Shown: positions 2,817 to 30,186, counted from the stretch's first letter. The stretch: DNA of 30,194 nt from Gemmatimonadales bacterium (GCA_039794085.1 JBDIWC010000045.1:1-30194); one strand, 5' to 3'. The notes: generated by a model from the sequence alone, not told the origin. A program made the numbers and translations.

Positions 2817-2889
2817 GCGCCGCTAGCTCAATTGGCAGAGCAAGTGACTCTTAATCACTAGGTTGTAGGTTCGATTCCTACGCGGCGCA
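2817..2889 (+). tRNA. tRNA-Lys(CTT), integration target
   Basis: Acceptor GCGCCGC/GCGGCGC, anticodon arm AGTGA-CTCTTAA-TCACT, GTTCGATT; the 3' half is duplicated at 15798-15842. Confidence 0.95.
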
Positions 2890-2891
2890 CT
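2847..2891 (+). repeat. attL core (3' half of tRNA-Lys, starting at the anticodon loop)
   Basis: ACTCTTAATCACTAGGTTGTAGGTTCGATTCCTACGCGGCGCACT, identical to 15798-15842. Confidence 0.95.
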
Positions 2892-2898
2892 CCTTACA

Positions 2899-2911
2899 AA
2901 TCAACAACTTA
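2899..2911 (+). promoter_or_regulatory. IHF-like site in the att arm
   Basis: AATCAACAACTTA matches WATCAANNNNTTR exactly; a weaker copy AATAAGGCACTTA lies at 15748-15760. Confidence 0.55.
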
Positions 2912-2919
2912 CCAAGATC

Positions 2920-2946
2920 GGCCCGCCCCTTCGGCGGGCCTTTTTT
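2920..2946 (+). terminator. Intrinsic terminator after the tRNA operon, supplied by the island
   Basis: GGCCCGCC-CCTTC-GGCGGGCC followed by TTTTTT. Confidence 0.85.
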
Positions 2947-2951
2947 GCGCC

Positions 2952-2972
2952 TATCCATAGGAATATCCATAG
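2952..2972 (+). repeat. Integrase arm-type sites (left pair)
   Basis: TATCCATAG at 2952-2960 and 2964-2972; the same pair occurs at 15661-15680. Confidence 0.75.
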
Positions 2973-3132
2973 TCCGCTTCTCCCGAGAAGATCCACATAG
3001 GTGCATCGAGGCAACCTCCTCCCCAAGACCCACGCTGAGGTCCGACGAGTGCGTTAGATGTGCTCAATCATACTTATAGAAGGGAGGAGCCATTGGTGGC
3101 TCGTCCACACCCAGATTCGAGGAGGCAGGAAC

Positions 3133-3321
3133 ATGGACATCCCAAAGCTACTGCGCGTGAAAGAGGCGTCCGAGCGGACCGGGTTGGCGGCGTGGCGCTT
3201 CTACGACCTTATCGCCCGGGGGAAAGGACCACCCCACATGCGGGTCGGGAAAACCATCCGCATCGCGGAAACGGCCCTTGTCGAGTGGATCGAGGGGCAG
3301 CACCGGAAACCGACTTCCTAG
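3133..3321 (+). CDS. Excisionase / AlpA-HTH_17 family DNA-binding protein
   Basis: 62 aa, 'LLRVKEASERTGL...FYDLIARGKGPPHMRVGKTIRIAETALVEWIE'; GGAGG RBS; next to attL. Confidence 0.85.
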   Translation: MDIPKLLRVKEASERTGLAAWRFYDLIARGKGPPHMRVGKTIRIAETALVEWIEGQHRKPTS

Positions 3322-3415
3322 GATCCTATAAGGGGGGAGGCAACCGGAGCCCCTCCTAATAGGCACCGAGGAAACACCTTTCTACTACAGCATCCCTACG
3401 GGGGAAGGAAAAAGC

Positions 3416-4072
3416 ATGCCTACCGATGAACTTCAGGCCCTTCGGCGGCGAATCGACATCGTCCTTACCGCGCTCGGCGGTAGGTCGGTCGAGGAAACCG
3501 CCCGGCAATGTCGCACTTCGCGTCCGACCGTGTCCAAATGGCTCAAACGATTCCGCGAGTGTGGGATCGCGGGCTTGTTGTCAGGCGTCCCCAGCGGACG
3601 CCCAAGCTCCATCCATCCCGCCGTCCGGCGCGAGCTTCTCCGTCTCCCGTACCACACGCGGCCTCCGCTCGCCCGGGGGGACCAGTGGACAGCGAATGCT
3701 CTGGGCCAAGTATTCGGCCTCCACCCGGCCACGGTCTCGCTGGTGTGGCAATCCGGGCGCTTCGATGCCCCCCAGCATCTCAGGCAAGTGGAAATCGGAC
3801 CGGACCGGGGGGTTCCTCTCCGCCTTGAGGCCCGGGTGCCCGCGTGGTTCAAGCTCCACCTCGAATTGTTCTGCCGCGAGCGGGACCTTTCCCTAGAGGA
3901 GCACGTCATCAACCTCATTTGCGGGCCGGATGGGTGGCGGGAGTTACGAGAGGACGTCCTGCCCTCGCTCCGTCCCCGCTGGTACCGGGTCAACGACAAC
4001 CTTCCCCGGGTCGATCCCCGGCACCCGGCGTATCGGGCGAGGCTTGGGAGGGAGGATCACCATGCGAGTTGA
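3416..4072 (+). CDS. IS630-type tandem HTH protein with RHH-like C-terminal part and no DDE domain
   Basis: 'GRSVEETARQCRTSRPTVSKWLKRFRECGIAGL...SGRP...WTANALGQVFGLHPATVSLVW' matches the IS630 N-terminal pattern; followed by 'RLEARVPAWFKLHLELFCRERDLSLEEHVINLI'. Confidence 0.7.
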   Translation: MPTDELQALRRRIDIVLTALGGRSVEETARQCRTSRPTVSKWLKRFRECGIAGLLSGVPSGRPSSIHPAVRRELLRLPYHTRPPLARGDQWTANALGQVFGLHPATVSLVWQSGRFDAPQHLRQVEIGPDRGVPLRLEARVPAWFKLHLELFCRERDLSLEEHVINLICGPDGWRELREDVLPSLRPRWYRVNDNLPRVDPRHPAYRARLGREDHHAS

Positions 4073-4964
4073 TAATCCGGGTGCCCTCATCGAGCATCTC
4101 CGACGCTTTCCCTTCCCCCGGGTCGTCCTGCGTGGAGCGTGGGAGGCGGCGGGCACGTCCGAGGACGGGGCACTGGTGGCCGTCCTGCCTCCCCTCGACA
4201 CCGCTCCCGCGCTGTCTGGGGAGGAGGTAGGTATAGAACTGAACCCCCTTCTGAGGTGCCTGCCGGGGTTGTACTCGCGCAACGAGGGGAGCAGTCATCA
4301 AGCGGTCTGGCTTCCTGTTGACGTCGATCTTGAGGAAACCCGGATGGTGTGGTCAAGCCCCGGCCATCCCGAAACGGGGATCCTGCGTTTTCGTCGGTTC
4401 CACCCGGAGTCGGTCCACGGTCGTCTTGATCCGGCCCTCTCCGCGTCCATCGTGGCACGAGCGGAAGAGACGGGCGAGCGTCTCTCGATTCCCGACGCGC
4501 TTGATTGGAAGGACGATCCGATCCCCGTCGCTGAGCCTACGACGCTCCCCGAGCATTGGCTATCAGGTGCCTACCGTACCACGACGGCCAATAGAATCCA
4601 GACGGCCAGGAGAAACGCCAAAAGGAAAAAGGAGGACAAAGAACCCGAGGAGATCGTTCAGTTAGTAGGAACCTCGGGGTACTCCGTACTGAGGGGGCCC
4701 TTGTTGGGATGGGCGGGGCGCTACGCGCCCCCGATTCCTCACGTGGGGCGCTACGCCCTCCCGATTCGCCATGTCGGCTCCCAGGAGTTTGACTTGACCT
4801 TCCCCGGAGAGCACTTCCGGCGAGTGATGGGGATTCTTCTGCGTTCTCGCGATCCTGTGGAAATGATCGTGAGTGCGGACGCTGTCCTTTTCAAGCAGAG
4901 GGGGTACGCGTATCTCATCTATGCGAAGGAAGGCCTACGGAACCCGATCTCTGGGGAAGGGTGA
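4062..4964 (+). CDS. Hypothetical protein, candidate PCNA/gp45-like DNA sliding clamp
   Basis: GGAGG RBS, and ATG overlapping the upstream ORF. The ORF itself is well supported; the clamp call rests on motif resemblance by eye only. Confidence 0.5.
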   Translation: MRVDNPGALIEHLRRFPFPRVVLRGAWEAAGTSEDGALVAVLPPLDTAPALSGEEVGIELNPLLRCLPGLYSRNEGSSHQAVWLPVDVDLEETRMVWSSPGHPETGILRFRRFHPESVHGRLDPALSASIVARAEETGERLSIPDALDWKDDPIPVAEPTTLPEHWLSGAYRTTTANRIQTARRNAKRKKEDKEPEEIVQLVGTSGYSVLRGPLLGWAGRYAPPIPHVGRYALPIRHVGSQEFDLTFPGEHFRRVMGILLRSRDPVEMIVSADAVLFKQRGYAYLIYAKEGLRNPISGEG

Positions 4965-4986
4965 GGTGAAGGGTGAGGTGAAGGGT
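4956..4986 (+). repeat. 12-bp tandem repeat GAAGGGTGAGGT x2.6 directly upstream of a promoter
   Basis: Seen directly; ends 3 bp before the -35 box. Confidence 0.85.
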
Positions 4987-4989
4987 CAC

Positions 4990-5018
4990 TTGACCTAGCG
5001 GGGTGTAACCTGTATCTT
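4990..5018 (+). promoter_or_regulatory. Sigma70-type promoter of the rep-like gene
   Basis: TTGACC-N17-TATCTT. Confidence 0.65.
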
Positions 5019-5136
5019 TCCTAAACTGAGCGCCGCGGAACAGTGCTCTGCAACTCCCAAAACCTCCGCCACCGTAATGGTGTAGCGGAGGTTTTGCGTT
5101 GGGGGGATTCCCCCGGTCCCGACAACGGAGGAGCAC

Positions 5137-6075
5137 ATGTCCCAACTGCACATCCCGACCCGCGACACTGTTTCTGAGCCTCACCCGACTCGCGGTACAG
5201 TCTCAAAGCCTCACCTGACCGAGCATTTCGTCGAGCCTACGGAACCCCAACCGAATCAGAGGTGGCGACGCGAGACGGAGTGGGCGGTCGCCTGTTCGGA
5301 CCTTCCTCCTGCGACTCGGGTTCTCCTGCGCGTCGTTCTTCTGCATCAGAGCAAATACGGGGGACCGTGCATTGCGGAGTACCGGACGCTCGCGCGGGAG
5401 GCCTCACTCTCCCAGTCTGCCTTGTGCGCCATCCTGCGCCGCTCCGCCCGCGCGGGGATTGTGGACCGGATGCCAGAGGATGGACCCCGGAATCGGCACA
5501 CGAGCGTCCTATTGAGGCCGTCCCGCGATGACCGCGCGGCGCTCGGGGCGCTCTGGGCTAGGCTGAGCGTCCTGCGGCGCCGGATGGTGGCTGGCACAGT
5601 CACCGAGCGAGAAGAGGCCCTGATGCGATGGGCCTGCCCTGAGGAGTGGGCCAGGTGCTACTGGTCTACCCGACCGGAGGCGGACGAGGCCTCTTTCGTC
5701 GCGTTGGAGACGCGGGCACGGGAGGAGGCGGGGGGCCCTGATGTGAACCGCTTTGGGTGGATCCGCGAGGTCGTGGCCGACCGGTCCCTCACCACACTGT
5801 CCAAGGGGGTCGCCCTCGCGGCGGACCTGCTGATGGCGCGGGACGGGGTGCCCCTCCGCTGGATCATGAGGAGCGATCTGGCGGCCCTGTCGGGCTACTC
5901 GCGAGACGCCGCACGTCGCGGATTGGGGGCGCTCGAAGCGGCGGGGTGGATCCGATCAGTTCACGTGGCGGGACGAGAAGGTGGCTTGCTTCTCCGGGCG
6001 TCTCTCCCTCCGGCGATTGCCGCTCGGTGGGAGCGAGAGAAGGCGGTGAATGAGTGGGAAGAGCACTGCGGCTAA
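5137..6075 (+). CDS. Tandem winged-helix (HTH_36-like) putative replication initiator
   Basis: Two copies of the pattern W...L...(R/K).....L...TLA..(A/S)(S/G)(L/Y)S......L......G(I/W)(V/I); GGAGGAG RBS; direct repeats immediately downstream. Confidence 0.65.
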   Translation: MSQLHIPTRDTVSEPHPTRGTVSKPHLTEHFVEPTEPQPNQRWRRETEWAVACSDLPPATRVLLRVVLLHQSKYGGPCIAEYRTLAREASLSQSALCAILRRSARAGIVDRMPEDGPRNRHTSVLLRPSRDDRAALGALWARLSVLRRRMVAGTVTEREEALMRWACPEEWARCYWSTRPEADEASFVALETRAREEAGGPDVNRFGWIREVVADRSLTTLSKGVALAADLLMARDGVPLRWIMRSDLAALSGYSRDAARRGLGALEAAGWIRSVHVAGREGGLLLRASLPPAIAARWEREKAVNEWEEHCG

Positions 6076-6190
6076 AGGGCTTCCTCCAGGATGCTAAAGG
6101 GCTTCCTCCAGTACTCATGGTGCGAGGGAGGAGGTTAGTGGAAACTGTGAAACGAGAGGGGTTCCGGGAGATAAAAGGGCTTCCTCCAGG
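6071..6190 (+). repeat. Iteron-like repeats AAAGGGCTTCCTCCAG x3
   Basis: GCTAAAGGGCTTCCTCCAG at 6071-6089 and 6093-6111 (22-bp period); third copy at 6174-6190. Confidence 0.85.
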
Positions 6191-6328
6191 AATGGGAGAG
6201 GAGGACCTCTCTAGAGTACAGAAGAAAAGCTCTTCTCTAGAATGAGGTAACTGAGAATGAGGCCGGGAGGAGCCCCGGCCTAGGGATCAAGGAAAGGCTA
6301 GGGAAAAACTGGGGGAAGGAAGTACCTG

Positions 6329-6386
6329 AGAGAGACTCCCGGTAGAGGGGAACACGCAGAGAGACTCCCGGTAGAGGGGAACACGC
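6329..6386 (+). repeat. Perfect 29-bp tandem duplication
   Basis: AGAGAGACTCCCGGTAGAGGGGAACACGC x2. Confidence 0.9.
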
Positions 6387-6413
6387 CCGAGCGTCTTAGA
6401 AAGGAGAGATCAG

Positions 6414-6992
6414 ATGTCATATCCGAGGACGCCTACTCCACTGCCTGATGTCCGGTGGGTACGGTGGCGACGGTGGGATCCGATCACGGGAGACATGCGT
6501 CCGGGAGGCAAGTGGCACGTGGTCGAGAGGGGAACACGGTCGGTGTGCGAGAGGATCCCGGTGCCTGGGGCGGCATGGAAGGTCGCCGTGGAAGAGACGA
6601 AGAAGGCCCCCCGAGACCGGGATTTGTGTAAGGCGTGTCGGGAGCTCAGGGCCGGGGAGGAGGCGCGACGGGCGACCAGACGGGCGTGGGTGGCGGAGTT
6701 CGTGAGCGCAATGGAGGCACAGGTCCAGTACTCCGTCTGTGAGTGCGTGACGCTCTGGCTTCGGTCGGAGGAGGCGACCCCGTGGCGGCAGATGGTGGAG
6801 GGGGTCACCGAACGTCTCCATCAGGCCCTGTTCCTCTATGAGACGGGTGGGGAGCGGAGGGAACGCGATGCCTTGGAGGGACTCCGCGTGGGGGTCCTCG
6901 TGGCGTGGTGGGGGGCGGGATTGGGCTTTCGGGTGGCTGTGGGGGATTGCGGCTGTACGCCGGAAGGGAGTCAACAGCGGGAAGGCACCTAG
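6414..6992 (+). CDS. Hypothetical protein with N-terminal H-C-CxxC zinc-finger-like motif
   Basis: AAGGAG RBS; WVRW...GKWH-x9-C-x26-CKAC. Confidence 0.7.
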   Translation: MSYPRTPTPLPDVRWVRWRRWDPITGDMRPGGKWHVVERGTRSVCERIPVPGAAWKVAVEETKKAPRDRDLCKACRELRAGEEARRATRRAWVAEFVSAMEAQVQYSVCECVTLWLRSEEATPWRQMVEGVTERLHQALFLYETGGERRERDALEGLRVGVLVAWWGAGLGFRVAVGDCGCTPEGSQQREGT

Positions 6993-7106
6993 ACCCGCCG
7001 GAGAGCGGCGGAGAGGAACTAATGGGAGCGGGGCAGGGAAAGAGGGGTTTGACGGGTAGCGAGGGCTGAGGAGGCGAATCTCGGCCCAAGGAAGGAGGGA
7101 GCGCAA

Positions 7107-7895
7107 ATGGAGGACGCGGGAGAGAGGCCGGCACGGAGCGGCCTTCACTGGATCCGCTGGTCAAAGGGAAAGTGGCATGCCTGGCCCTACGGGGGGAGAC
7201 GGAGCCTGTGCGGTGGGCGGGCGTATGCTGACCTCCTCTCCTCCCCTGTACATGCGGTGGAGACGAGCCTGTCCCCTTTCGCGGCGAGGGAGGCCTGTGC
7301 GAGATGTCTCCGGCTTACCGGCCCCGAGCAGAGGGAGGATCGAAGCTCGGCTTCGAAGGGGACATACGCGGAGGAATGGCGAGGGGTTCTGACGGCCCGA
7401 GCGCGGGGGCGGCGGGTGGTTGGTGCGAAGGAAAACCTCGACCTCCTTGCCTCCCGTCTGGCTGAGGTCGGATCCCCCTCTCAGGAGTACCCGCGCAATG
7501 TCGGTGAGAACGTGATCCTTGTTGTCGCGGTCCCGCTCCGCGACAGAACCCTCACCCTGTTCCCGTACGTGAAGGCCGTAGTGGCCCTCCTCCCGGGTCG
7601 AGAATCCCTCGTGCATGTGGCGCGAGCGGTGGAGAGGTGGAGGGAGATAACCGGACGTGACCCCCGGTCAGAACGCTTCCGGCCAGACACGGTCATCTCC
7701 ACAATGCTCCAAGTACCGACCCCTGAGCCCTATGTCCGACATCTCCATTCGAAAGGTTGGAGTAGTCTGGCGCAGATGTGGCACCCCAACACGTTGGAAG
7801 CGGCCAAGAAAGATCCTCATTTGCGCGGAACGTTTGGAGGCACCCCTGACTACTGGGCACGAACCCAAAATGATCTGGTCATCGTGCGAGAGTAA
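7107..7895 (+). CDS. Hypothetical protein with paralogous N-terminal H-C-CxxC motif
   Basis: GGAGGGAG RBS; WIRW..GKWH-x10-C-x28-CARC. Confidence 0.7.
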   Translation: MEDAGERPARSGLHWIRWSKGKWHAWPYGGRRSLCGGRAYADLLSSPVHAVETSLSPFAAREACARCLRLTGPEQREDRSSASKGTYAEEWRGVLTARARGRRVVGAKENLDLLASRLAEVGSPSQEYPRNVGENVILVVAVPLRDRTLTLFPYVKAVVALLPGRESLVHVARAVERWREITGRDPRSERFRPDTVISTMLQVPTPEPYVRHLHSKGWSSLAQMWHPNTLEAAKKDPHLRGTFGGTPDYWARTQNDLVIVRE

Positions 7896-7942
7896 GGAAA
7901 CGGGAGGAGGGAATGGCGTGGTCGTTTGTTGGAGTAAAGGGC

Positions 7943-8060
7943 TGATGGGTGACGTGAAGGGTGGTGTGTGAAGGCACAGACTAGACCATCACACAGCACA
8001 AGCACTAACTTAAAACAGACAGCGCCGGTGTGAAGGCCTATGGATCTCTCGTGATGGGTG
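7943..8060. repeat. Cluster of (G)TGAWGG repeats in direct and inverted orientation
   Basis: Copies at 7943, 7954, 7966, 7986 (inverted CCATCACAC), 8028 and 8051, around an A-rich spacer. Confidence 0.7.
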
Positions 8061-8214
8061 GAGCGAAGTCAAGAGAGAGCAAGGAGATAGGCGGCCACCT
8101 AATGATTAGAAATCTCTAGGTGATCGGTTGGGGGCGGGGTTGTACGGGGGTAGGAAAAGCACCGGGTAGACCCCAGTTCCGGTGGGCAAGCAGTCAAAGC
8201 AGGAGGTAGATGTA

Positions 8215-8673
8215 ATGGAGAACGCAACAGAAAGCGAAGGGTCCGCCCCGGCCACGCTCTCGGAGGAGGAGAGACCGGACCAGTGCCGGGCGATCGTGGA
8301 CGGGCGCCCCTGCGGAGTACCGGCGACCTGGGTCAAGGATGGATGGTGCTTTGCCCATAACCCGGCGCTGGAGGCCGAGAGGCGGGCCGCGAATCTGCGG
8401 GGCGGGATGACGACGGCTCGACTCCTCCGGAAGAGGCGGGGACTGGAGGAGGGGGAACTGGGAGCGTTGCAGACCCCGGAGGATGCGCAGCGTTGGTGCA
8501 TGATCGCAGCCACGGCGGTCGCCACGGGTCGGATGTCTGCCTCGGCGGCGAGTGCCTTGCGGGGACTGGTGACCTCATGGCTGCGGTCGCGGGATCTCCA
8601 CGTACGAGAGACCCGCCTCTTGGCCCTAGAGAAGCGGGTCGCCGAGTTGAACGGAGGAGGATACCGACCATGA
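8215..8673 (+). CDS. CCCH zinc-ribbon plus helical protein, small-terminase-like (inferred)
   Basis: AGGAGG RBS; C-x8-C-x11-C-x2-H(NP); C-terminal 'LQTPEDA...AVATGRMS...ETRLLALEKRV'. Confidence 0.6.
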   Translation: MENATESEGSAPATLSEEERPDQCRAIVDGRPCGVPATWVKDGWCFAHNPALEAERRAANLRGGMTTARLLRKRRGLEEGELGALQTPEDAQRWCMIAATAVATGRMSASAASALRGLVTSWLRSRDLHVRETRLLALEKRVAELNGGGYRP

Positions 8674-8936
8674 ACAAAGAGCTTCCCGAGGACCTCGTCC
8701 CCGGATGGGGGATGTTGGAGCGGGCCGTGGCGGCGGTCGGAGACAACGACCAGAGAACGGGATTCGAGCACCTCACGGATGCCGAGTTGATGCGTCGTCT
8801 GGCCGAACTTGACCCCGACTCTCCCCCCTCGACGTGGAGCGTTCTGCCTCCCCTCGCGAGTCTGTCGGACGATGAACTCTTGCACGAGCTACACGCGTTG
8901 GACGATTCACACCCCCACAGGAGTAGACCCCAATGA
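8670..8936 (+). CDS. Hypothetical protein with duplicated L(T/S)DxEL helix motif
   Basis: GGAGGAGG RBS and ATGA overlap with the upstream gene; 'LTDAELMRRL' and 'LSDDELLHEL'. Confidence 0.7.
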   Translation: MNKELPEDLVPGWGMLERAVAAVGDNDQRTGFEHLTDAELMRRLAELDPDSPPSTWSVLPPLASLSDDELLHELHALDDSHPHRSRPQ

Positions 8937-9310
8937 AGTACGCCGAACCTCTGTCCCCGGACCTACTGACCAAGGCGGAACTGATGCGAACCGTGCAGGA
9001 TCTGACGGGAGCAGTCAACGCCGCCGCCGATTCGTCAAGGCCGATGAGTGTGCGAGACGCCGCCCGCCGGACGGCGCTCGACTGCCGGGCCCGTCTCGAC
9101 CGCGACAACGCCGTCCGAGAGCGGTTGCCGGAACCCTCCGCCGTCCGGGTCGCAGAGATGGGCCCGTGCGGATGCCGTCCTCGACACGCAACGCCGGCGG
9201 AGCAGCAGGCCTTGAGTGCACAGATCAAGGACCTGAGGAGGGATGTCGAGGTGATCCAGCAGCAGGCGGCGGCGCTTCTGGCCCGCTTCACTCCGGCGGG
9301 CCAGCACTAA
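8933..9310 (+). CDS. Hypothetical helical/coiled-coil protein
   Basis: AGGAG RBS and ATGA overlap; C-terminal heptads 'LSAQIKDLRRDVEVIQQQ'. Confidence 0.7.
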   Translation: MKYAEPLSPDLLTKAELMRTVQDLTGAVNAAADSSRPMSVRDAARRTALDCRARLDRDNAVRERLPEPSAVRVAEMGPCGCRPRHATPAEQQALSAQIKDLRRDVEVIQQQAAALLARFTPAGQH

Positions 9311-9438
9311 CGGGTGGGTGGGGATCCGGTGCGTGCGGTGGGTTTACGGCCCCCGCATGCCGTAAGTGGGGACCTAATCCAGCCCCGGCCGGTGACCCAC
9401 CCCCTTCTCCTTCATGGGAGCAGAAAGGAAGTCCCCAA

Positions 9439-10191
9439 ATGACCGACGAGACAGCGGCCACGGTCGCGGAGCTTGACGCGGAACTGGCGGAGGCCCGGGC
9501 AGGATTGGCCGCCGCCGAGAAGGAGAGGGAAGCCGCCTCGCGTGCGGCCCGCGAGAACCCCCAGGACGAGGACACCATCACGCGGGTGACCAAGGCCACC
9601 TACCGCCTCGACGCCTTTCGGGGCCGGGTAGCGGATCTGGAGGTGGAGCGGGAGGAGGCCGGACGGGCGGACCGACGGGCGCGAGCGGTCGAGCGGCTCT
9701 CGAAGGGAATCCCCCGGGCGCACGGGTCGCTGATGAACGAGTACCAGAAGGACATGGAGCGCGTCGTGTCGTCTGTGCAGGCCTTGAAGAAGGCGGTCGA
9801 CCGCATCAATAGCCGCTACGGGGTGCTGGACCTCCTTCGGCTGGAGGCTGAGGCCGTGGCCGACCGTTTCGAGCTTCCTCGGCTCCCGCTGCCCCTCGTC
9901 CTCCCCCCTTCGAGGCTCCCTCACGCCAAGGAGGTCGTCGAGGAGATGGCCCGTATAGTGCTGACCGAGCGGTCCTATCCGACGGCCCGCGAAATCGGGC
10001 GACGGGTCCGGGGGACACCGGGCGGGCAGTTGATTTACGAGGCGGGACCGATCGAGGCCGAACGCCGGGCGACGGAGGCGAAGGTCGCCAAAGCCGAGCA
10101 GGATCGCCGCGAGGCCGAAGCCACGATGGCCCCGCTGGCCGGCGCCTTCAAGGCGGCGAACGCACCGACCCGCCACGGCCTTGGGTTCTGA
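9439..10191 (+). CDS. Long coiled-coil hypothetical protein (250 aa)
   Basis: AAAGGAAG RBS; Ala/Glu/Arg-rich heptads throughout. Confidence 0.75.
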   Translation: MTDETAATVAELDAELAEARAGLAAAEKEREAASRAARENPQDEDTITRVTKATYRLDAFRGRVADLEVEREEAGRADRRARAVERLSKGIPRAHGSLMNEYQKDMERVVSSVQALKKAVDRINSRYGVLDLLRLEAEAVADRFELPRLPLPLVLPPSRLPHAKEVVEEMARIVLTERSYPTAREIGRRVRGTPGGQLIYEAGPIEAERRATEAKVAKAEQDRREAEATMAPLAGAFKAANAPTRHGLGF

Positions 10192-10205
10192 CCGAAAATG
10201 ACGCT

Positions 10206-10979
10206 GTGATCGGCTTCAAGTTCCTCTTCCCCCACGCTTCGCTTCTCTGGCGTAGCGTATGCCAAGGGGAGGTCTTCCCCGCGCCAGGGCTCGGGGAGAG
10301 CGCGGGAGCGTGGGTAGTGTGCGCGGGCGACCTCAAGCCCGGCCACAACGGCCTCCACATCCTCGACGGCCCGGCGGGGGTGCTGTGGTTCCTCAAGAGT
10401 TACGGCGGGGCGGTCGGTTGCGGCGGGATGTGGAGCGTCGAGGGCGACGGCGCAGAAAAGGCGGAGCACGATCCCGTTCTTGTGGCTCGCCGGGTACGGC
10501 TCCTGCGGCCCGTGTCGTGGAATTGCCGCGCGATGGCCGCCGAGGTCGCCGCCCTTGCGCTTCCGCTATGGGACCAGTTTGCTCCCGGAGATCCCCGCCC
10601 TCGTATGGCAGTCGAGGCAGCGTGGTCCTTTGCCCAGGGCGCGGTCACGGAGCGGGTCTTGGCCCTCGCGTCCGCCGATGCGGAACGCGCGACCTACGGC
10701 CCGCTCGGGGGGATCGGGACCTCCGGGCCCGAGCCCTCTGGAGAGCCGCCCCTCCTGCGCCTGCGGGCGCGGTGGGCTGCGCTGGCGGCGAGCCGATGCG
10801 CGAGTGCGGAGGCCGGGCTCGAACCCCGCGCCGATGACCCGCCGGTCGCCCCCAACGCCTATCCGCGTCCCCTCGGGCCCGCGCCCTTCGGCCTCCTCCA
10901 GCGCACGATCATTGCGGCACTGGATGCCGGTGTGGAGGAGGAGGCGATAAGCGCCGCCCTCGCGCCGTACATGGGGTAG
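10206..10979 (+). CDS. Phage-type N-terminal domain fused to an Imm5-like domain
   Basis: N-terminal 'GDLKPGHNGLH...VLVARRVRLLR'; then 'AAEVAALALPLWDQFAPGDPRPRMAVEAAWSFAQG', matching the Imm5-like D.RPR.A..AA motif. Confidence 0.6.
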   Translation: MIGFKFLFPHASLLWRSVCQGEVFPAPGLGESAGAWVVCAGDLKPGHNGLHILDGPAGVLWFLKSYGGAVGCGGMWSVEGDGAEKAEHDPVLVARRVRLLRPVSWNCRAMAAEVAALALPLWDQFAPGDPRPRMAVEAAWSFAQGAVTERVLALASADAERATYGPLGGIGTSGPEPSGEPPLLRLRARWAALAASRCASAEAGLEPRADDPPVAPNAYPRPLGPAPFGLLQRTIIAALDAGVEEEAISAALAPYMG

Positions 10980-11208
10980 TTCACGTTCAGTTCAAGGTTC
11001 TGTCCTACCGTAGTGGCACGATGTTTACCCTTGACGAACTCCGCGAGGCTGAGGCCTGGGCCCGAGCGTGGTCCCGGGTTCGGGAGTTCGTGGATCCCGC
11101 TGGGACCTGCTGCTGCCGCAGGCTTGCCAGATCAGGGTGCGAGCGGTACTCTCTTCGGGGGGTTGGGAGAGGCACGGGGAGACTGACGAACAACTTTAGG
11201 GTAACTGT

Positions 11209-11595
11209 ATGAATGCGGGAACTCCAACGCATCCCATAAACTGGAAGCGTGGCTTGCACCGGGTTTTTGCGGTGCTTTGGGTCATATGGGGGTTGTTTCT
11301 GTTCGGGTGGCTTCCTCTACAGCAGATCCACCGGGCGCAGCGATTCGCGCAAGAGATGTATGCTCGTGATCTGGATGCGATACCAAGCAATGAGCGAGAA
11401 AGGGCCGAGTGGAAGGCTCGTCAAGATGAGCGGCGGGCTCGGGCATCGTGGTCCCACGTTTATAAGTCAGAAGTCATTCCAAACATCTGGCTGTTCTTGG
11501 CCGCCGCTGTGTTCGTCCCAATTATCGCGTATGCACTGGTGCGTGGAGTGCTAGTTATCGTGGGTTGGCTATTTCGTGGATTCACTACACCCTAA
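11209..11595 (+). CDS. Two-TM membrane protein (cargo)
   Basis: 'NWKRGLHRVFAVLWVIW...' plus a C-terminal TM ending 'WLFRGF'; visibly lower GC. Confidence 0.75.
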   Translation: MNAGTPTHPINWKRGLHRVFAVLWVIWGLFLFGWLPLQQIHRAQRFAQEMYARDLDAIPSNERERAEWKARQDERRARASWSHVYKSEVIPNIWLFLAAAVFVPIIAYALVRGVLVIVGWLFRGFTTP

Positions 11596-11678
11596 CCGCG
11601 CGTTCGCGAGTGACGCCCCGGGCGTCCTGACGCACTTCGTCCTTGTGCGCCGCTTAGCGCAGCGTGTCGCGGCGGCTC

Positions 11679-12128
11679 GTGCCTGAACTGGCGACACAAG
11701 TCCTAGCGGGGTGGGGCGCCGCCCTTTCCACCGCACTCGCTGCCCTCCAGTTTCACTCCTGGTGGCGCGATCGCTTTCGCATCGAGGTCTCCTACCAGTT
11801 CACGGGGTGCGACGACATCGGGAACCAGATATACATCCGGAACCTTTCAGCTACACCACTGATCCTCACATACTGGGAACTCCAATGGCGATCCGGATGG
11901 CCGCTTCTCACTTCAGTATCGCGAACCCATCAACCAGACGCACACGATCATTCCGATGTACGTATCGAAGCACGATCTACGCACATTTTGTCATTCGTAG
12001 GGCCTGATTATTTCGATTGCGGGGTTGGGGCGTCGAAAGGCGACACAATCTACATCGAGCTCCGCTTTGCTGGTCGCCGCTCGATTGTCCGCAAGAAGGT
12101 CTACAGCCCGCGAGACCGCATGCTATGA
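11679..12128 (+). CDS. Hypothetical protein with N-terminal TM anchor (cargo)
   Basis: 'LAGWGAALSTALAALQF..W.RDRFRIEV' followed by a beta-rich domain; start uncertain (GTG at 11664 or 11679), no clear RBS. Confidence 0.6.
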   Translation: MPELATQVLAGWGAALSTALAALQFHSWWRDRFRIEVSYQFTGCDDIGNQIYIRNLSATPLILTYWELQWRSGWPLLTSVSRTHQPDAHDHSDVRIEARSTHILSFVGPDYFDCGVGASKGDTIYIELRFAGRRSIVRKKVYSPRDRML

Positions 12129-12137
12129 AACAAGGGA

Positions 12138-12177
12138 GGCCCATAGGGTTGGTAACAGCCCTATGGGTCCTGCTTTT
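12138..12177 (+). terminator. Strong hairpin / possible terminator
   Basis: GGCCCATAGGGTTG-GTAA-CAGCCCTATGGGTC followed by CTGCTTTT. Confidence 0.55.
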
Positions 12178-12195
12178 CCTTCACGGAGGTTGAGT

Positions 12196-12465
12196 ATGAT
12201 TGATGATGAGAAGTGGCCGAGAGTGAACGAGAAGGCGCGATGGGAGAAGGACGGTGAGTATGTTGCCGTTGCGGGGGCCGTGGATGCCGATCGTGGGTCC
12301 GTCTACATTGTCGAATCAAGCGTGGCCCCAAGGCTGCCGTACGCGATACGGTCCCTCAAGACGGACGGTCACGACGAGGATGCGCTTGCCTCTCTCGTCA
12401 AACGGGTTGGGGCGTGGGCCTTGGAAAACGGGTTTGCTTGTGTCGACCTTGGGGGAGCGCGATGA
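12196..12465 (+). CDS. Hypothetical protein (89 aa)
   Basis: GGAGGT RBS; stop codon overlaps the next ATG. Confidence 0.7.
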   Translation: MIDDEKWPRVNEKARWEKDGEYVAVAGAVDADRGSVYIVESSVAPRLPYAIRSLKTDGHDEDALASLVKRVGAWALENGFACVDLGGAR

Positions 12466-12944
12466 CCTCCCCGGTTGAACCAGACAATGGTGAGGACGAG
12501 CGCCAGTACGAAGTAGTCGTCCAACAGATCGAACACCTTGTCGCCGTCGAATACGAGAGATCCTCGGCGTACACCAACTTGGTCATGGCGGTTGGATACG
12601 CAGGGGTCTTCGGCATCTGGTCCTTCGTTAAAGACGACCTGGACCCCCGTAGCTCTTTGCTGGTGGCGCTCCTTTTCCTCATCTCGCTTGCCGCGTTCAT
12701 CTTCAATGAAGTGTTCCAGGGCTACAACCGTGAGAAGGCTAATCGAAAGGTTGCCAAGCTGACCCAACAGGGGTCGACCATTGACGAGCTAATCAATAGT
12801 TACAAGCGTATCGCGGATGAACGGGCGGTCAAGGCCGCTCTGGTATGGCCGTGGGCATGGTCGGTGGCCACAGGTGCGGGTCTCCTGTCGGTCGCCGTCC
12901 TCCTCTTTGAAATCGGTTCACAACTGGTGAACGCGCTCCGGTAG
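12462..12944 (+). CDS. Three-TM membrane protein (cargo)
   Basis: GGAG RBS and ATGA overlap; 'SAYTNLVMAVGYAGVFGIW' plus two further hydrophobic segments. Confidence 0.75.
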   Translation: MTSPVEPDNGEDERQYEVVVQQIEHLVAVEYERSSAYTNLVMAVGYAGVFGIWSFVKDDLDPRSSLLVALLFLISLAAFIFNEVFQGYNREKANRKVAKLTQQGSTIDELINSYKRIADERAVKAALVWPWAWSVATGAGLLSVAVLLFEIGSQLVNALR

Positions 12945-13062
12945 GGCGCCGGGACGCAAACGTAGTGGAACGGGGTGGGTCGTGTCTTGTGGTGACGTGT
13001 AAGGTCGAGGTCTTAGTTAGTCGTGTCCTCTTCTACTTGCTGATCCACCTGCTGTAGGAGTG

Positions 13063-13094
13063 AACCCGTAGAGTTCTTATGCTCTACGGGTTTT
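13063..13094 (+). terminator. Hairpin, probable terminator after the cargo genes
   Basis: AACCCGTAGAG-N8-CTCTACGGGTT, running into TTTT. Confidence 0.6.
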
Positions 13095-13261
13095 CCTGTT
13101 CCGCGGGTAGCGGTGTAGCATCTAGAGGCCCTGTAGCGACGCCGAGAGGCCGCCTCTCCCTTCCGAACGCGTTCCCTCCTTCCTCCTCCCTCTCTGGCCC
13201 CCAATCAGCGCTTCTACCCCAAGGGTGGACTCGCACGTAACCCCACCATCCCCAAAAACCC

Positions 13262-13290
13262 TTGACCTTTATATGTAGCAAGAGTAGGTT
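13262..13290 (+). promoter_or_regulatory. Sigma70-type promoter of the small-gene/integrase operon
   Basis: TTGACC-N17-TAGGTT preceded by an A-tract. Confidence 0.65.
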
Positions 13291-13337
13291 AGGGGTAGGT
13301 TAAGACTGAACCTGAACCCTGAAACCGGAGCCCCCAA

Positions 13338-13607
13338 ATGACCACACCCGCTCTCCTCCACGAATTAGAAAGACTGGGGTTCCTCATTCACGAGTATGGG
13401 GAAGAAGTCCCCGGTTGGATAGCCCTCTCCTTTTCCTACAACCGATTCCTCCGGTACAACACCGCGCTGGCTCTCCAGATCCTGGAGAAGTACCCCGACG
13501 GATACGCGACCACCAAAACCCGCAAAACCGAAGTACGCCGTGCCTTGGAACCCGCTATGGAACAGCCGGGAAAGTTCTACACCGCCCGCGCTACCACCAC
13601 CTTCTAG
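13338..13607 (+). CDS. Hypothetical protein (89 aa)
   Basis: GGAG RBS, directly downstream of a promoter. Confidence 0.7.
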   Translation: MTTPALLHELERLGFLIHEYGEEVPGWIALSFSYNRFLRYNTALALQILEKYPDGYATTKTRKTEVRRALEPAMEQPGKFYTARATTTF

Positions 13608-13621
13608 CAGAAAGGGACACA

Positions 13622-13840
13622 ATGAACTCCTCCTCTCCCTCCCTCCTCGAAAACTGGGCCATCGTGTCCGAAATCGAGGAAGGGTTCGCGGTCGGGAACG
13701 GGGATACGCTGGTGATTCTGTATCCGGATGGCGATGTGGAAGTCTCGTCAGAGGATGGCGCCATCTCTCGGTTGCCTTTCCAAGAACTCGTCCTCGTCCT
13801 CAACTGGCTGGCCCTCCACCGGCTACCGCCGAAGGCGTAA
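13622..13840 (+). CDS. Acidic hypothetical protein (72 aa)
   Basis: AAAGGGA RBS, operonic spacing. Confidence 0.65.
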   Translation: MNSSSPSLLENWAIVSEIEEGFAVGNGDTLVILYPDGDVEVSSEDGAISRLPFQELVLVLNWLALHRLPPKA

Positions 13841-13865
13841 CCCCCGGACACAAAGGAGATCACCG

Positions 13866-14159
13866 ATGACCATCACTACCCGCAGCGCCGTCCCCTTCCC
13901 GCTGGGACGCCTTCTGGCCACTCCGGGCGCTCTGGCGGCCCTGTCGGAGGCGGGGCAGACCCCGCTCGCCTACCTCCAGCGCCATGCGGCGGGGGACTGG
14001 GGCGACCTGGGGGCAGAGGATCGGCGGGCCAACGAGGATGCCCTTCGGAGCGGGGCCCGCCTGTTCAGTGCCTACCGCATTTCCCCGGACATCCGCCTCT
14101 GGATCATCACCGAGGCCGGGCGGTCCGCGACGACGGTCCTACTCCCCGAGGAGTACTAG
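13866..14159 (+). CDS. Conserved plasmid/ICE-associated small protein (HxxGDWG...TTxLLPEEY family)
   Basis: 'FPLGRLLATPGAL...RHAAGDWGDL..ED..AN..AL..G.RLFSAY...LWIITE..RSATTVLLPEEY'; AAGGAG RBS. Confidence 0.85.
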   Translation: MTITTRSAVPFPLGRLLATPGALAALSEAGQTPLAYLQRHAAGDWGDLGAEDRRANEDALRSGARLFSAYRISPDIRLWIITEAGRSATTVLLPEEY

Positions 14160-14225
14160 AAAAGCCCCCGGCACCTCGATAGACGTGTTCGATCATACAT
14201 ATAAGGGGAAAGGAGACTCCAAACG

Positions 14226-15512
14226 ATGGCCACGGTCAACAAGCGCGAATGGACCACCAAGGACGGCACCCTCCGCACCCGATGGGATGCGACGGTCTAC
14301 GTCCCGCCCCTCCGGGATCCCGAGACGGGGGAACCGACCGGCGGTGCCCCCCGGCTTCTCAGCAAGACCTTCCACCGGAAGGGGGATGCCGATGCCTGGG
14401 CCCGGGCGCAAGAGGGGCTCAAGGGGAGCGGGCGCTCCCCGGTCGTCACCCGACAGACGCTGGCCCAATACCTGACCGGATGGTTGGAGACGAGCGTCGC
14501 CGGGCAGGTGCGGCGCGTCACCTTCGACAGCTACCGGGCGAGTGTGAGCCGATGGATCCTCAAACCGACCAATGGCGCTCCTCCCATCGGCTCGGTGCCC
14601 CTGCGGCGCTTGAGCGTCCATTCCTTCGACGCCCTGTACACCTATATGGCCGAGTACGGCCTCCGGCGCGAGATCAAGTACCTCCACGGGATCGTGAAGC
14701 GGGCGCTCCGGGACGCGGTCAAGAGGAACATCCTCCCCTCCAATCCGGCCGAGTATGCGAGCGTGCCGAAGGCCGATGCGTCGGGAGAGGTCGAGGCCGC
14801 CGAGGGCGTGGGAAAGACGATGACCCGGGAGGAGGCCGGACGGTTTCTCCTCTGCGCGCGGGTGGAGAGGTTGAGTGCCCTCTGGCACGTCCTCCTGACG
14901 GGCGGTCTCCGGCCTTCGGAGGCCTTCGCCCTTCGGTGGGCGGATGTGGACTTCGGGGAAGGAGCGGTGGACGTCAAGCGGACCCTGACGCGGAGCGTCG
15001 ACCGGAAAAAGCACCCTGCGGGGTGGGCCTTCGCCCGCCCCAAGACGGCCAAGAGCCGCCGCCACGTTCCTCTCCCCGCCGTCACCATGAGGGAGCTACG
15101 GGCGTGGCGGGGGATCCAGAACCAAGAGCGTCTTCTCCTCGGTCCTGAATGGCAGGATCATGGCCTTCTGTTCACGACGGAGTTCGGCACCCCCCTCGAC
15201 CTGTCCAACCTCCGCACCGGCTCCTTCCGCCGCGTGATGGAAGGGGCGGGGCTCGGGACATGGGGACCGGAGAGGCGGAAGCCTCGGAGCGGCCCGACCG
15301 CTCGGAGACCCTTCACTCCCTCCCACCGGATCTATGACCTCCGCCATACCTGCGCCTCGCTCCTCCTCATGGATGGCGAGGACCTTCTGACCGTGAGTCG
15401 GAGGCTCGGCCATAGCACCATCACCCTCACGGCCGATACCTATGCCCACGTCGCTCCCCAAAGGGCCGAGGCGGCCGCGGCCCGCTTCGACAAGATGTTC
15501 GGGACGGCGTAA
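14226..15512 (+). CDS. int: Tyrosine recombinase / phage-type integrase
   Basis: Arm-binding N-terminus, SAM-like core and catalytic motifs GLRPSE (R), PKT (K), YDLRH, LGHS and TYAH (Y); next to attR. Confidence 0.95.
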   Translation: MATVNKREWTTKDGTLRTRWDATVYVPPLRDPETGEPTGGAPRLLSKTFHRKGDADAWARAQEGLKGSGRSPVVTRQTLAQYLTGWLETSVAGQVRRVTFDSYRASVSRWILKPTNGAPPIGSVPLRRLSVHSFDALYTYMAEYGLRREIKYLHGIVKRALRDAVKRNILPSNPAEYASVPKADASGEVEAAEGVGKTMTREEAGRFLLCARVERLSALWHVLLTGGLRPSEAFALRWADVDFGEGAVDVKRTLTRSVDRKKHPAGWAFARPKTAKSRRHVPLPAVTMRELRAWRGIQNQERLLLGPEWQDHGLLFTTEFGTPLDLSNLRTGSFRRVMEGAGLGTWGPERRKPRSGPTARRPFTPSHRIYDLRHTCASLLLMDGEDLLTVSRRLGHSTITLTADTYAHVAPQRAEAAAARFDKMFGTA

Positions 15513-15547
15513 GGGACCTTCCCTCCTTCGCCCTCGCGCTTTCATAC

Positions 15548-15608
15548 TCCTCTAGGGTCGGGTAATTACTGCCCCCTCGCCTTCTTGTTCCTCTAGGGGC
15601 GGGTAATT
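15548..15608 (+). repeat. 20-bp direct repeat in the right att arm
   Basis: TCCTCTAGGG(T/G)CGGGTAATT at 15548-15567 and 15589-15608. Confidence 0.8.
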
Positions 15609-15660
15609 CCCTTTCCATACCCTTCTTGGCGTCCGTAGAGGACCCCCCGAACACCAAAAA

Positions 15661-15680
15661 TATCCATAGTCTATCCATAG
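15661..15680 (+). repeat. Integrase arm-type sites (right pair)
   Basis: TATCCATAG at 15661-15669 and 15672-15680. Confidence 0.75.
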
Positions 15681-15797
15681 TCCGAGGCCAAAAACGACCC
15701 AAGAAGGCCAAACGGCCAACTTTTTCCTACTCCGTATCTGATTGTAAAATAAGGCACTTACACGCTAGGCCCAAAAGGGCCAGAGACCGGGGGGCAA

Positions 15798-15842
15798 ACT
15801 CTTAATCACTAGGTTGTAGGTTCGATTCCTACGCGGCGCACT
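15798..15842 (+). repeat. attR core (duplicated 3' half of tRNA-Lys)
   Basis: 45/45 identity with 2847-2891. Confidence 0.95.
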
Positions 15843-15845
15843 GGA

Positions 15846-15995
15846 CCCTCACCCCCCGTCCCCCTCTCCCGCACGCGGGAGAGGGGGGGGCTTGGCCTCC
15901 ATTTCCCTGCCGACAACCGATCCGCCGACCCGCCCCCTGATCTTCAGGTGCCGTTCCCCTCTCCCACTCTGTGGGAGAGGGGTCAGGGGTGAGGG
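15846..15995. repeat. Inverted pair of REP-like palindromes (CCCTCACCCC..CCCTCTCCC..GGGAGAGGG)
   Basis: Copy at 15846-15887 and inverted copy at 15956-15995, each with an internal hairpin. Confidence 0.8.
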
Positions 15996-16036
15996 CCACC
16001 GCTGGCCCTCCGACGTCGGTCGGGGTAGAATGCAGC

Positions 16037-30085: not shown

Positions 30086-30186
30086 CCACAAGAAGCACAA
30101 AAGGCACAAAACCTCTCCCCCCCCTGGTGGCAGAGGGGCGTGCCTCTTGTGACTTCTGTGCTTTTTGTGGCCATTCCCCTCGCCCG
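30086..30186. repeat. Inverted CACAA-type repeat pair containing module A
   Basis: CCACAAGAAGCACAAAAGGCACAAAA (30086-30111) is a 22/26 inverted match to 30145-30170; 30140-30180 is identical to 34-74. Confidence 0.85.

Follow-up and report, generated by a model that had tools for sequence, protein, structure and literature searches.

A 12,951-bp Integrative Element at tRNA-Lys of a Hot-Spring Gemmatimonadales Bacterium: A Possible Helper-Dependent Phage Satellite with a TerS-Like Gene

Introduction

To our knowledge, nearly all described phage satellites come from Proteobacteria and Firmicutes, and their detection relies on homology to a few core genes. The capsid-forming phage-inducible chromosomal islands (cf-PICI) carry their own HK97-type capsid, portal, and head-completion genes. 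In the phage-inducible chromosomal islands (PICI), the core components include a small terminase subunit (TerS) that redirects packaging, and the core set given for SatelliteFinder comprises an integrase, a regulator of the alpA/merR/stl type, a primase-replicase, a capsid-morphogenesis gene, and a small terminase (PMC10085698). The phage-inducible chromosomal minimalist islands (PICMI) of Vibrionaceae have no capsid-remodelling genes and are fully reliant on helper particles (PMC10803314). The present work concerns an island integrated at a tRNA-Lys gene of a Gemmatimonadales bacterium (GCA_039794085.1). The window analysed is the whole 30,194-bp contig JBDIWC010000045.1 (C45) of a 4.16-Mb metagenome-assembled genome (MAG) from a hot spring, which is 94.7% complete. 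No mention of Gemmatimonadota satellites was found in a full-text literature search, and the 2023 satellite survey (PMC10085698) does not use the word 'Gemmatimonad' in its main text.

The island is a real, intact, and recently gained integrative element of 12,951 bp. We give an even chance to the reading that it is a helper-phage-dependent satellite: it carries a predicted TerS-like gene but no recognisable large terminase subunit (TerL), capsid, or motor, and would therefore depend on a helper virus for its spread. The same logic had been put forward in a preliminary description of the window, and it is supported here by the lack of a recognisable self-transfer or packaging motor and by a gene with relatives in the TerS position upstream of TerL.

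Results

Integration Site and Recombination Module

The island is delimited by two 45-bp repeats, which are identical without mismatch and spaced 12,951 bp apart (attL core, 2847–2891; attR core, 15798–15842). The left copy covers, from the anticodon stem onward, the 3' part of tRNA-Lys(CTT) (2817–2890, + strand; predicted by ARAGORN, 3' 44 nt inside attL), which is the integration target and closes a His-Trp-Glu-Glu-Lys cluster; the right copy is the displaced tRNA 3' half. In the same-genus genome G001, the tRNA cluster is 92.1% identical over 2,002 nt and is followed, after ~510 bp, by the gene that flanks the right side of the island in the window (96.5% nucleotide identity over 984 nt; 98.1% amino acid identity over 316 residues). 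G001 therefore represents an empty site and the 12,951 bp an insertion; the exact att duplication reported earlier was confirmed as well. The presence of an empty site between 92–96% identical flanks in a same-genus genome argues for recent gain.

The G+C content of the island is 63.4%, compared with 65.8% and 67.6% in the flanks, and the host-trained codon score is 0.02–0.10 for the central open reading frames (ORFs) versus 0.18–0.33 for two flanking host genes; these lower values fit a foreign origin. A terminator-like hairpin with a T run (2920–2947, + strand) is borne by the island just 3' of the restored tRNA. The five-tRNA cluster was complete in 8 of the 9 relatives' loci. Syntenic elements at tRNA-Lys, for which the preliminary description had suggested a search, did not emerge within 1.5 kb beyond the cluster, where none of these nine loci had an island protein. 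Island-interior DNA was absent among the matches listed for 40 relatives, and megablast of the whole island found no match in 50,697 phage records.

A tyrosine integrase (Int) of 428 aa (14226–15512, + strand; PF00589, 3.3e-14; phrog_1, 1e-54) and a 62-aa protein of the excisionase (Xis)/AlpA type with an HTH_17 helix-turn-helix (HTH) domain (3133–3321, + strand; PF12728, 3.3e-9; phrog_66, 8.5e-8; TIGR01764 'excise', 3.4e-7; no match to PF05930) are encoded at opposite ends of the island in the same reading direction. On an excised circle, int, attP (~570 bp), and xis would become neighbours in this order. Each arm contains two exact TATCCATAG sites, 12 bp apart on the left (2952–2972, + strand) and 11 bp apart on the right (15661–15680, + strand), and these are predicted Int arm-type sites. 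The four exact copies are all on the + strand and do not recur elsewhere in the window; at one mismatch or fewer, 5 matches were found versus 1.17 expected, a number reached in 2/100 shuffles. A 41-bp tandem repeat between int and attR (15548–15628, + strand; 2 copies, 77% match) is a possible Xis/Int binding region. Both the placement of Int and Xis at opposite ends and the paired arm sites thus stood as first described. The closest integrase in the species genomes, searched for as a lead to syntenic islands, was 48% identical and lay on a 4-kb contig without neighbours in common with the island.

In a genome of the same family (G015:C7:100500-120000), tRNA-His and tRNA-Trp are separated by 7.2 kb, compared with 27 bp in the window, and two additional tRNA-Trp 3'-end copies come after them, at 5.4 and 2.5 kb. 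Other islands, unrelated to the present one, seem to favour the tRNA cluster as a hotspot.

The TerS-Like Gene Family

The TerS-like gene (8215–8673, + strand) encodes a 152-aa protein (P0036) with a CxnC...CxxH zinc ribbon and a ~95-aa C-terminal helical core. Judged by gene position and family membership, P0036 is likely a small terminase subunit; the assignment is positional because no known TerS family matched. One close homologue was found, P0037, with 52% identity, on a 13,924-bp Logan contig. A profile hidden Markov model (HMM) of P0036 and P0037 revealed 16 places in 14 of the 400 sampled genomes of the phylum. At E<=1e-5, the gene family occurred in 9/165 genomes of its own taxonomic family, in 1/94, 2/30, and 2/70 genomes of three other families, and in 0/41 of the remaining seven. 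In a query-free control, an HMM of six relatives was run against the 45,083 stop-to-stop ORFs of the island's own genome and recovered the island ORF alone (E 1.3e-10). With phmmer, P0036 matched seven loci at 2.3e-11 to 1.4e-3, and the other island ORFs had no match to those seven TerS-like loci. An eight-sequence HMM confirmed six more places at 9e-32 to 9e-11 and L058 weakly (8.6e-4); L062 and L057 were not confirmed.

A small terminase gene classically sits immediately upstream of TerL. The gene of the P0036 family had TerL next to it, on its downstream side, in 7 of the 16 places. PHROGs identified TerL in L048 (phrog_7579, 1.8e-56), L050 (phrog_38, 3.1e-110), and L049 (phrog_2, 2.3e-17), and tblastn to a relative's TerL did so in L055, L059 (~0.6 kb away), L061 (also Terminase_6C), and L062. 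The TerS-like gene overlaps TerL by 4 nt in L048 and by 8 nt in L050. The TerL context was assessed outside L047, which is cut by the contig end, and L057, which lies on a 1.7-kb contig. In L060 (G417:C1, 6170–6818), 21-bp repeat arrays of 4 and 9 copies and a 46-bp tandem adjoin the TerS-like gene.

Absent Functions

Island ORFs were screened at the family level using Pfam, PHROGs, NCBIfam, and PADLOC. No island ORF matched a primase, helicase, terminase, capsid, portal, relaxase, or coupling protein in Pfam, PHROGs, or NCBIfam, and PADLOC detected no defence system in the island. A Walker-A scan ([AG]xxxxGK[ST]) in all six frames of the island gave one match only, by chance, inside Int; the island therefore encodes no recognisable NTPase motor. 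The original observation that primase, helicase, capsid, TerL, and relaxase are missing thus holds in all four collections. The island had no tblastn match to the TerL of relatives. The region 8670–10191 was also considered as a decayed or frameshifted TerL and rejected, since it showed no family match, no Walker A motif, and no tblastn match to the relatives' TerL.

Small Integrated Elements with the TerS-Like Family

Five of the places with a P0036-family gene are small integrated elements. The smallest is a 6,907-bp element at tRNA-Pro (L051; exact 46-bp repeat) with int, a primase, and the TerS-like gene and without TerL. The others are an 8,951-bp element at tRNA-Leu (L049, G450; 58-bp repeat) with a primase, TerS-like gene, and TerL; an 11,909-bp element at tmRNA (L048, G634; 20-bp repeat) with int, AlpA, an AAA_25 primase/helicase, RusA, the TerS-like gene, and TerL; a 12,833-bp element at tRNA-Leu(CAA) (L061, G168; 52-bp repeat) with Prim-Pol, TerS-like gene, TerL, and int; and a 15,789-bp element at tRNA-Ser (L050; 40-bp repeat) with a DnaB-like helicase, TerS-like gene, TerL, three unknowns, and int. 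None of the five has room for a full tailed-phage gene set. L048, L049, and L061 have their own TerS and TerL without a recognised structural gene.

The island resembles these elements in the TerS-like family, the att repeats at tRNA or tmRNA 3' ends, and the size range of 7–16 kb, and they in turn share with it a tyrosine integrase and the location of most genes on one strand. They differ from the island in having AAA_25, DnaB-like, or Prim-Pol replication genes and, in 4 of the 5, TerL; the TerS-like gene is the only one in common. Because other small elements combine this gene with int, AlpA, or primase, the island looks like a variant within the known PICI-type kind. The new satellite class proposed in the preliminary description is therefore unsupported: relatives hold small tRNA/tmRNA elements in which the same TerS-like gene accompanies ordinary int/AlpA/primase modules, and a new class is not demonstrated.

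The Winged-Helix Protein and Adjoining Repeats

A 312-aa tandem winged-helix protein (P0001; 5137–6075, + strand) is encoded downstream of a 12-bp tandem (2.6 copies) and a sigma-70-like promoter, TTGACC-17-TATCTT (4956–5018, + strand). At its stop codon begins a set of three exact direct repeats of 16 bp, AAAGGGCTTCCTCCAG, which resemble iterons or operators (6074–6189, + strand), and an exact 29-bp tandem duplication (2 x 29 bp; 6329–6386, + strand) lies farther on, ahead of the next operon. The three AAAGGGCTTCCTCCAG copies compare with 0.22 expected, and this number was reached in 0/100 shuffles. At 6100–6400, the G+C content dips to 54–56% with a strong purine skew. A DnaA box was not found, even with one mismatch allowed.

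By sequence, P0001 had weak matches to winged-helix families and a match to phrog_270 'replication initiation protein' at 9.2e-4. Searched exhaustively with HMMER, 1.84 billion representatives yielded 33 matches including P0001 itself, with 25–46% identity. The 30 homologues looked up all come from metagenomes or read archives (JGI, ENA, Logan, SRC), and one is named 'MarR family regulator'. Elsewhere, the single-protein search of P0001 had no match in the 400 phylum genomes, a 5.8-billion word-indexed set returned only P0001 itself, and tblastn found nothing in 72,556 plasmid records. The HMM of the winged-helix family (A1) gave only generic 40-aa winged HTH (wHTH) matches in 73/400 genomes, and the winged-helix queries A2 and P0006 had no match in metagenome contigs. 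Among the 30 homologues looked up (with cluster members) were six contigs of 12.6–15.8 kb; these sizes, and the 13.9 kb of the P0037 contig, hint at replicon-sized relatives, no more. No sign emerged that P0037 lies on one contig with a winged-helix homologue: for 30 of the 32 homologues, no contig had a length of 13,924 bp. Three of the 23 aligned homologues (P0005, P0008, and P0018) have an N-terminal extension with the Cys-rich motif CFCxxCKKxGFRRxELSDxWLCxxC.

The AlphaFold model built from a 24-sequence alignment (pLDDT 86.8) contained wHTH domains at residues 41–125 and 205–290, linked by helices. With this model, Foldseek found nothing at E<=1e-3 (best SarS, 1.9e-3; RepE 2z9o at rank 45), and the best Z in VIA-align was 6.4 for a generic winged-helix, with the 'MDR initiator' 4pta at Z 5.4. 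The protein and its repeats fit an iteron-type initiator and, equally well, a regulator of the downstream operon; we rate the initiator slightly above the regulator. The model and the three exact 16-mers thus support the earlier suggestion of a wHTH candidate replication protein beside repeats in place of a primase-helicase.

Other Genes and Repeats of the Window

The host-trained codon score placed 16 of the 20 candidate ORFs of the + strand above all five alternative frames. This was so for 1 of the 9 minus-strand ORFs, which is overlapped by higher-scoring + ORFs. The coding signal accordingly favours the all-plus-strand coding noted at the outset. The four + ORFs failing the test are 3416–4072, which is supported by Pfam, and three in the low-GC part at 11.0–12.1 kb. 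Beyond Int and Xis, three ORFs (3416–4072, 5137–6075, and 13866–14159) match a known family or collection; most ORFs are orphans.

The 218-aa HTH protein at 3416–4072 (+ strand; HTH_28, 1.6e-12; HTH_29; HTH_32; NF033545, 3.7e-14, below the cut-off) resembles in its N-terminus the DNA-binding part of IS630/IS481 transposases, without a DDE domain, and is a predicted regulator. The next ORF (P0002, 300 aa; 4062–4964, + strand) had no homologue found. Its label 'clamp-like' in the preliminary description is no more than a lead: in Atlas, hypothetical proteins of viruses and several DNA_pol3_beta clusters scored 0.86–0.87, below the line of 0.9, and the single-sequence AlphaFold2 model was unusable (pLDDT 31). 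Inside this ORF, a 30-bp tandem (4715–4774; copies 83% identical) has a GGGGCGC/GCGCCCC palindrome in each copy and encodes GRYAPPIPHV / GRYALPIRHV; the coding sequence may here contain an embedded DNA site.

The central operon (6414–10979) opens with two orphan ORFs on the + strand, of 192 aa (6414–6992), with an N-terminal W-x-R-W...KWH...C...CxxC motif, and of 262 aa (7107–7895), with the same N-terminal Cys/Trp motif (pairwise E 0.075 only) and no match in the Atlas search. The TerS-like gene is followed on the same strand by an 88-aa orphan ORF (8670–8936), joined to it by an ATGA overlap, and a 125-aa orphan ORF (8933–9310), joined to the 88-aa ORF in the same way. Farther downstream are a 253-aa coiled-coil protein (9430–10191, + strand) with the top codon score of the operon and a 257-aa orphan ORF (10206–10979, + strand), for which 250 same-family genomes gave no real match and one marginal one (2.9e-4). 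A low-GC accessory block (11209–12944, + strand) encodes a 128-aa membrane protein, ORFs of 154 and 89 aa, and a 160-aa membrane protein; hairpin terminators lie at 12138–12169 and ~13064–13095. Three small genes of 89, 70, and 97 aa precede int (13338–14159, + strand). For the 97-aa protein (13866–14159), no family match and no Pfam model were found, and its relatives are occasionally labelled 'type I restriction endonuclease subunit M'; the gene is a candidate for a role in establishment or anti-restriction.

Repeats are also present in the flanks. Just left of the tRNA cluster, a 556-aa ORF (546–2216, - strand) contains seven ~150-nt repeats (60–71% identical). Short intergenic repeats occur at both contig ends (24–80 / 30130–30186) and at 132–195 / 485–548. 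A repeat unit at 15936–15996 adjoins attR and has copies, 85–93% identical, in contigs C87, C15, C5, C30, and others of the genome and in a sister genome.

Discussion

Proposed Mode of Action

As a satellite, the island would respond to a signal from a helper phage, either infecting or induced, upon which Int and Xis would excise it as a circle. The tandem winged-helix protein may then bind the three 16-bp repeats beside its own gene and either initiate replication by means of host enzymes or activate the operon 6414–10979. The TerS-like protein would bring TerL and capsids of the helper to island DNA, as the small terminases of PICI and of the pathogenicity islands found in Staphylococcus aureus (SaPI) do, and the small genes before int, including the one of a plasmid-typical family, might aid establishment in the new cell.

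Weighing of the Satellite Reading and Its Rivals

Several observations weigh against the satellite reading. TerL was not recognised in 7 of the 16 places (L051, L052, L053, L054, L056, L058, and L060); in L054, L056, L058, and L060 it was sought by tblastn with the relatives' TerLs, supplemented by Pfam on one large ORF for L056 and L060. Within this set, the genes of the subgroup L053, L054, L056, and L060 encode a long C-terminal tail rich in Arg and lack an adjacent TerL, and the P0036 family may have another DNA-binding role. None of 14 family members matched the TerS families of PHROGs and Pfam, and the family profile matched no PDB sequence. In viral contigs (IMG/VR), neither the P0036-family queries nor A2, P0006, and P0003 found anything. 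The MAG gave 0 matches for five TerL families, the HK97 capsid, and the portal, that is, for a helper; nor did it match the relatives' TerL. The helper might be virulent, as is described for PICMI, whose helper need not be a resident prophage (PMC10803314), or it might have been left unbinned. Four public runs from a single hot-spring metagenome sample were available as assembled contigs. The depth of the island (~7.6 in run X1) equals that of the flanks (6–9), and no excision or circle junction is visible; because the contigs stop at the 45-bp repeats, an attP junction or empty attB can be neither seen nor excluded in them. Low-depth contigs of runs X1 and X4 connect position 15148 back to 13787 via 13 foreign letters and probably come from related sequence in another organism of the sample.

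Two further points on this side, the winged-helix protein with its repeats and the gene before int, are plasmid-like. Relatives of the 97-aa protein were found by tblastn in 195 of the 72,556 plasmid records versus 6 of the 50,697 phage records; the plasmids belong to Vibrio, Shewanella, Pseudomonas, Paenibacillus, and others, 82 of the 195 records are conjugative, and in Ralstonia pB1903 the neighbours are an ArdC-like zincin, an orphan N6-methylase, and KleA. The island could thus be an integrative plasmid, or a mobilizable element of the kind defined as iOriT (PMC11389934) that has only an origin of transfer (oriT). Such an element would excise, replicate via the winged-helix protein and iterons, and be moved by the relaxase and pore of a conjugative element, with the TerS-like protein as a DNA-binding accessory. 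The weak phrog_270 match and the six replicon-like homologue contigs of 12.6–15.8 kb also agree with this. The plasmid-like initiator and small gene make this a serious rival. We nevertheless consider it unlikely, since the island has no relaxase, coupling protein, or any P-loop protein, VirB4 (PF03135) and the PF03432 relaxase are absent from the MAG, the winged-helix protein is missing from the plasmid records, no DnaA box accompanies the repeats, and the TerS-position evidence points to phage packaging.

The lack of helper genes in the MAG, the single-copy depth, and the lack of junction reads (in contigs that break at the 45-bp repeat) would also suit a stranded or decaying satellite or a prophage fragment, now immobile and kept as a genomic island, as would the fact that no close whole-element relative appeared in the phage records or among the matches listed for the 40 relatives. 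That outcome is rather improbable in our judgement: the 45-bp repeats and the four arm sites are identical, no reading frame of Int, Xis, or the central ORFs is interrupted, ATGA overlaps couple translation, the empty site in a same-genus genome argues for recent gain, and no frameshifted TerL was detectable. The length of ~13 kb, the single coding strand, the mostly orphan ORFs, two small membrane proteins, and the clustering of homologue contigs near 13–16 kb would likewise be expected of a small, undescribed kind of non-tailed virus present as a provirus, with particles made from its own orphan proteins. This is very improbable, as no frame contains a packaging or morphogenesis ATPase motif, no capsid family was matched, four queries against IMG/VR found no relatives, and the TerS-like gene points to tailed-phage packaging.

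The helper-dependent satellite thus stays the reading we prefer, at the even chance given above. It is possible, if doubtful, that the island represents a first case of a separate Gemmatimonadota satellite lineage that would hijack tailed phages by a zinc-ribbon TerS of an undescribed family, replicate with a plasmid-style tandem winged-helix initiator and iterons in place of a primase-helicase, and encode no NTPase, within a wider unrecognised population of terminase-carrying elements of 7–16 kb at tRNA and tmRNA genes. Profile-based satellite finders would miss the island, as neither its TerS-like gene nor its replication gene matches a known family, although its layout agrees with the logic of a satellite. 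The TerS-like family offers a handle for finding satellites and helper phages in a phylum with barely known viruses, and the island itself could serve to test if exchange of a primase-helicase module for a plasmid-type initiator is open to a satellite.

Comparison with Known Systems

Among conjugative elements, the actinomycete integrative and conjugative elements (ICEs) of the pSAM2 type are 9–24 kb long, integrate into tRNA genes, carry int, xis, and rep, and need an FtsK-like Tra ATPase. The island is like them in size, tRNA integration, int, xis, and a candidate rep gene and differs in having no Walker-A protein; with respect to ICEs in general, it contains neither a VirB4/FtsK-like ATPase nor a relaxase, and PF03135 and PF03432 are absent from the MAG. 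The likeness to iteron initiators (RepE, RepA, and pi) consists in two winged-helix domains within a ~300-aa chain and in the adjoining direct repeats. The differences are that no Rep family was recognised for P0001 by sequence, where the matches were generic HTH ones plus phrog_270 at 9.2e-4, its fold matches are generic, and it has neither a DnaA box nor a match in plasmid records.

By the published core sets, as far as the sources cited here set them out, the island is not a member of the PICI, P4-like, cf-PICI, or PICMI groups, because the primase-replicase is missing in all cases, as are recognisable capsid genes or the fis site where these are required. Of the P4-like set, it has only an integrase and an HTH_17 protein, with no PHROGs or Pfam match for Psu, Delta, Sid, Ash/epsilon, or the alpha primase-helicase. 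For cf-PICI, no capsid or portal match was found in the island, and the MAG as a whole lacks PF05065 and PF04860. The PICI integrase has its counterpart in Int (PF00589, 3.3e-14; phrog_1, 1e-54). For the PICI regulator, the 62-aa protein matches PF12728 and TIGR01764 and not PF05930, and its role as regulator or excisionase is only putative; no primase or helicase family represents the primase-replicase. The preliminary description had contrasted the island with elements bearing AlpA-type switches. The Xis-type gene was confirmed, but the contrast in this respect is not supported, as the protein is an HTH_17 member and PF12728 (HTH_17) is taken as the AlpA marker in the PICMI model (PMC10803314).

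As set out in PMC10803314, PICMI115 has six genes, PICMI lie next to fis, and a DUF3987/DUF5906 primase is mandatory; that source does not use the word 'terminase' in its main text. Compared with this description, the island is like PICMI in its int, in the PF12728 match of the gene 3133–3321, and in having no recognised capsid-remodelling gene, and it differs in being much larger, in its position at tRNA-Lys, in the lack of a DUF3987/DUF5906 primase, and in the TerS-like gene. With PICI/SaPI, as the core set is given in PMC10085698, the island shares a similar size, an integrase, a small HTH gene of the putative AlpA/MerR type, a predicted replication module, a gene of the probable small-terminase type without TerL, a conserved one-directional layout, and a fixed integration site. 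It differs from them in that a tandem winged-helix protein with 16-bp repeats takes the place of a primase-replicase homologue, the TerS-like protein matches no known TerS profile, no capsid-morphogenesis gene was recognised, and the host is an unstudied hot-spring bacterium. By analogy with these published systems, the island would work most like PICI/SaPI, with its own predicted TerS and no TerL, and its minimalism resembles that of PICMI.

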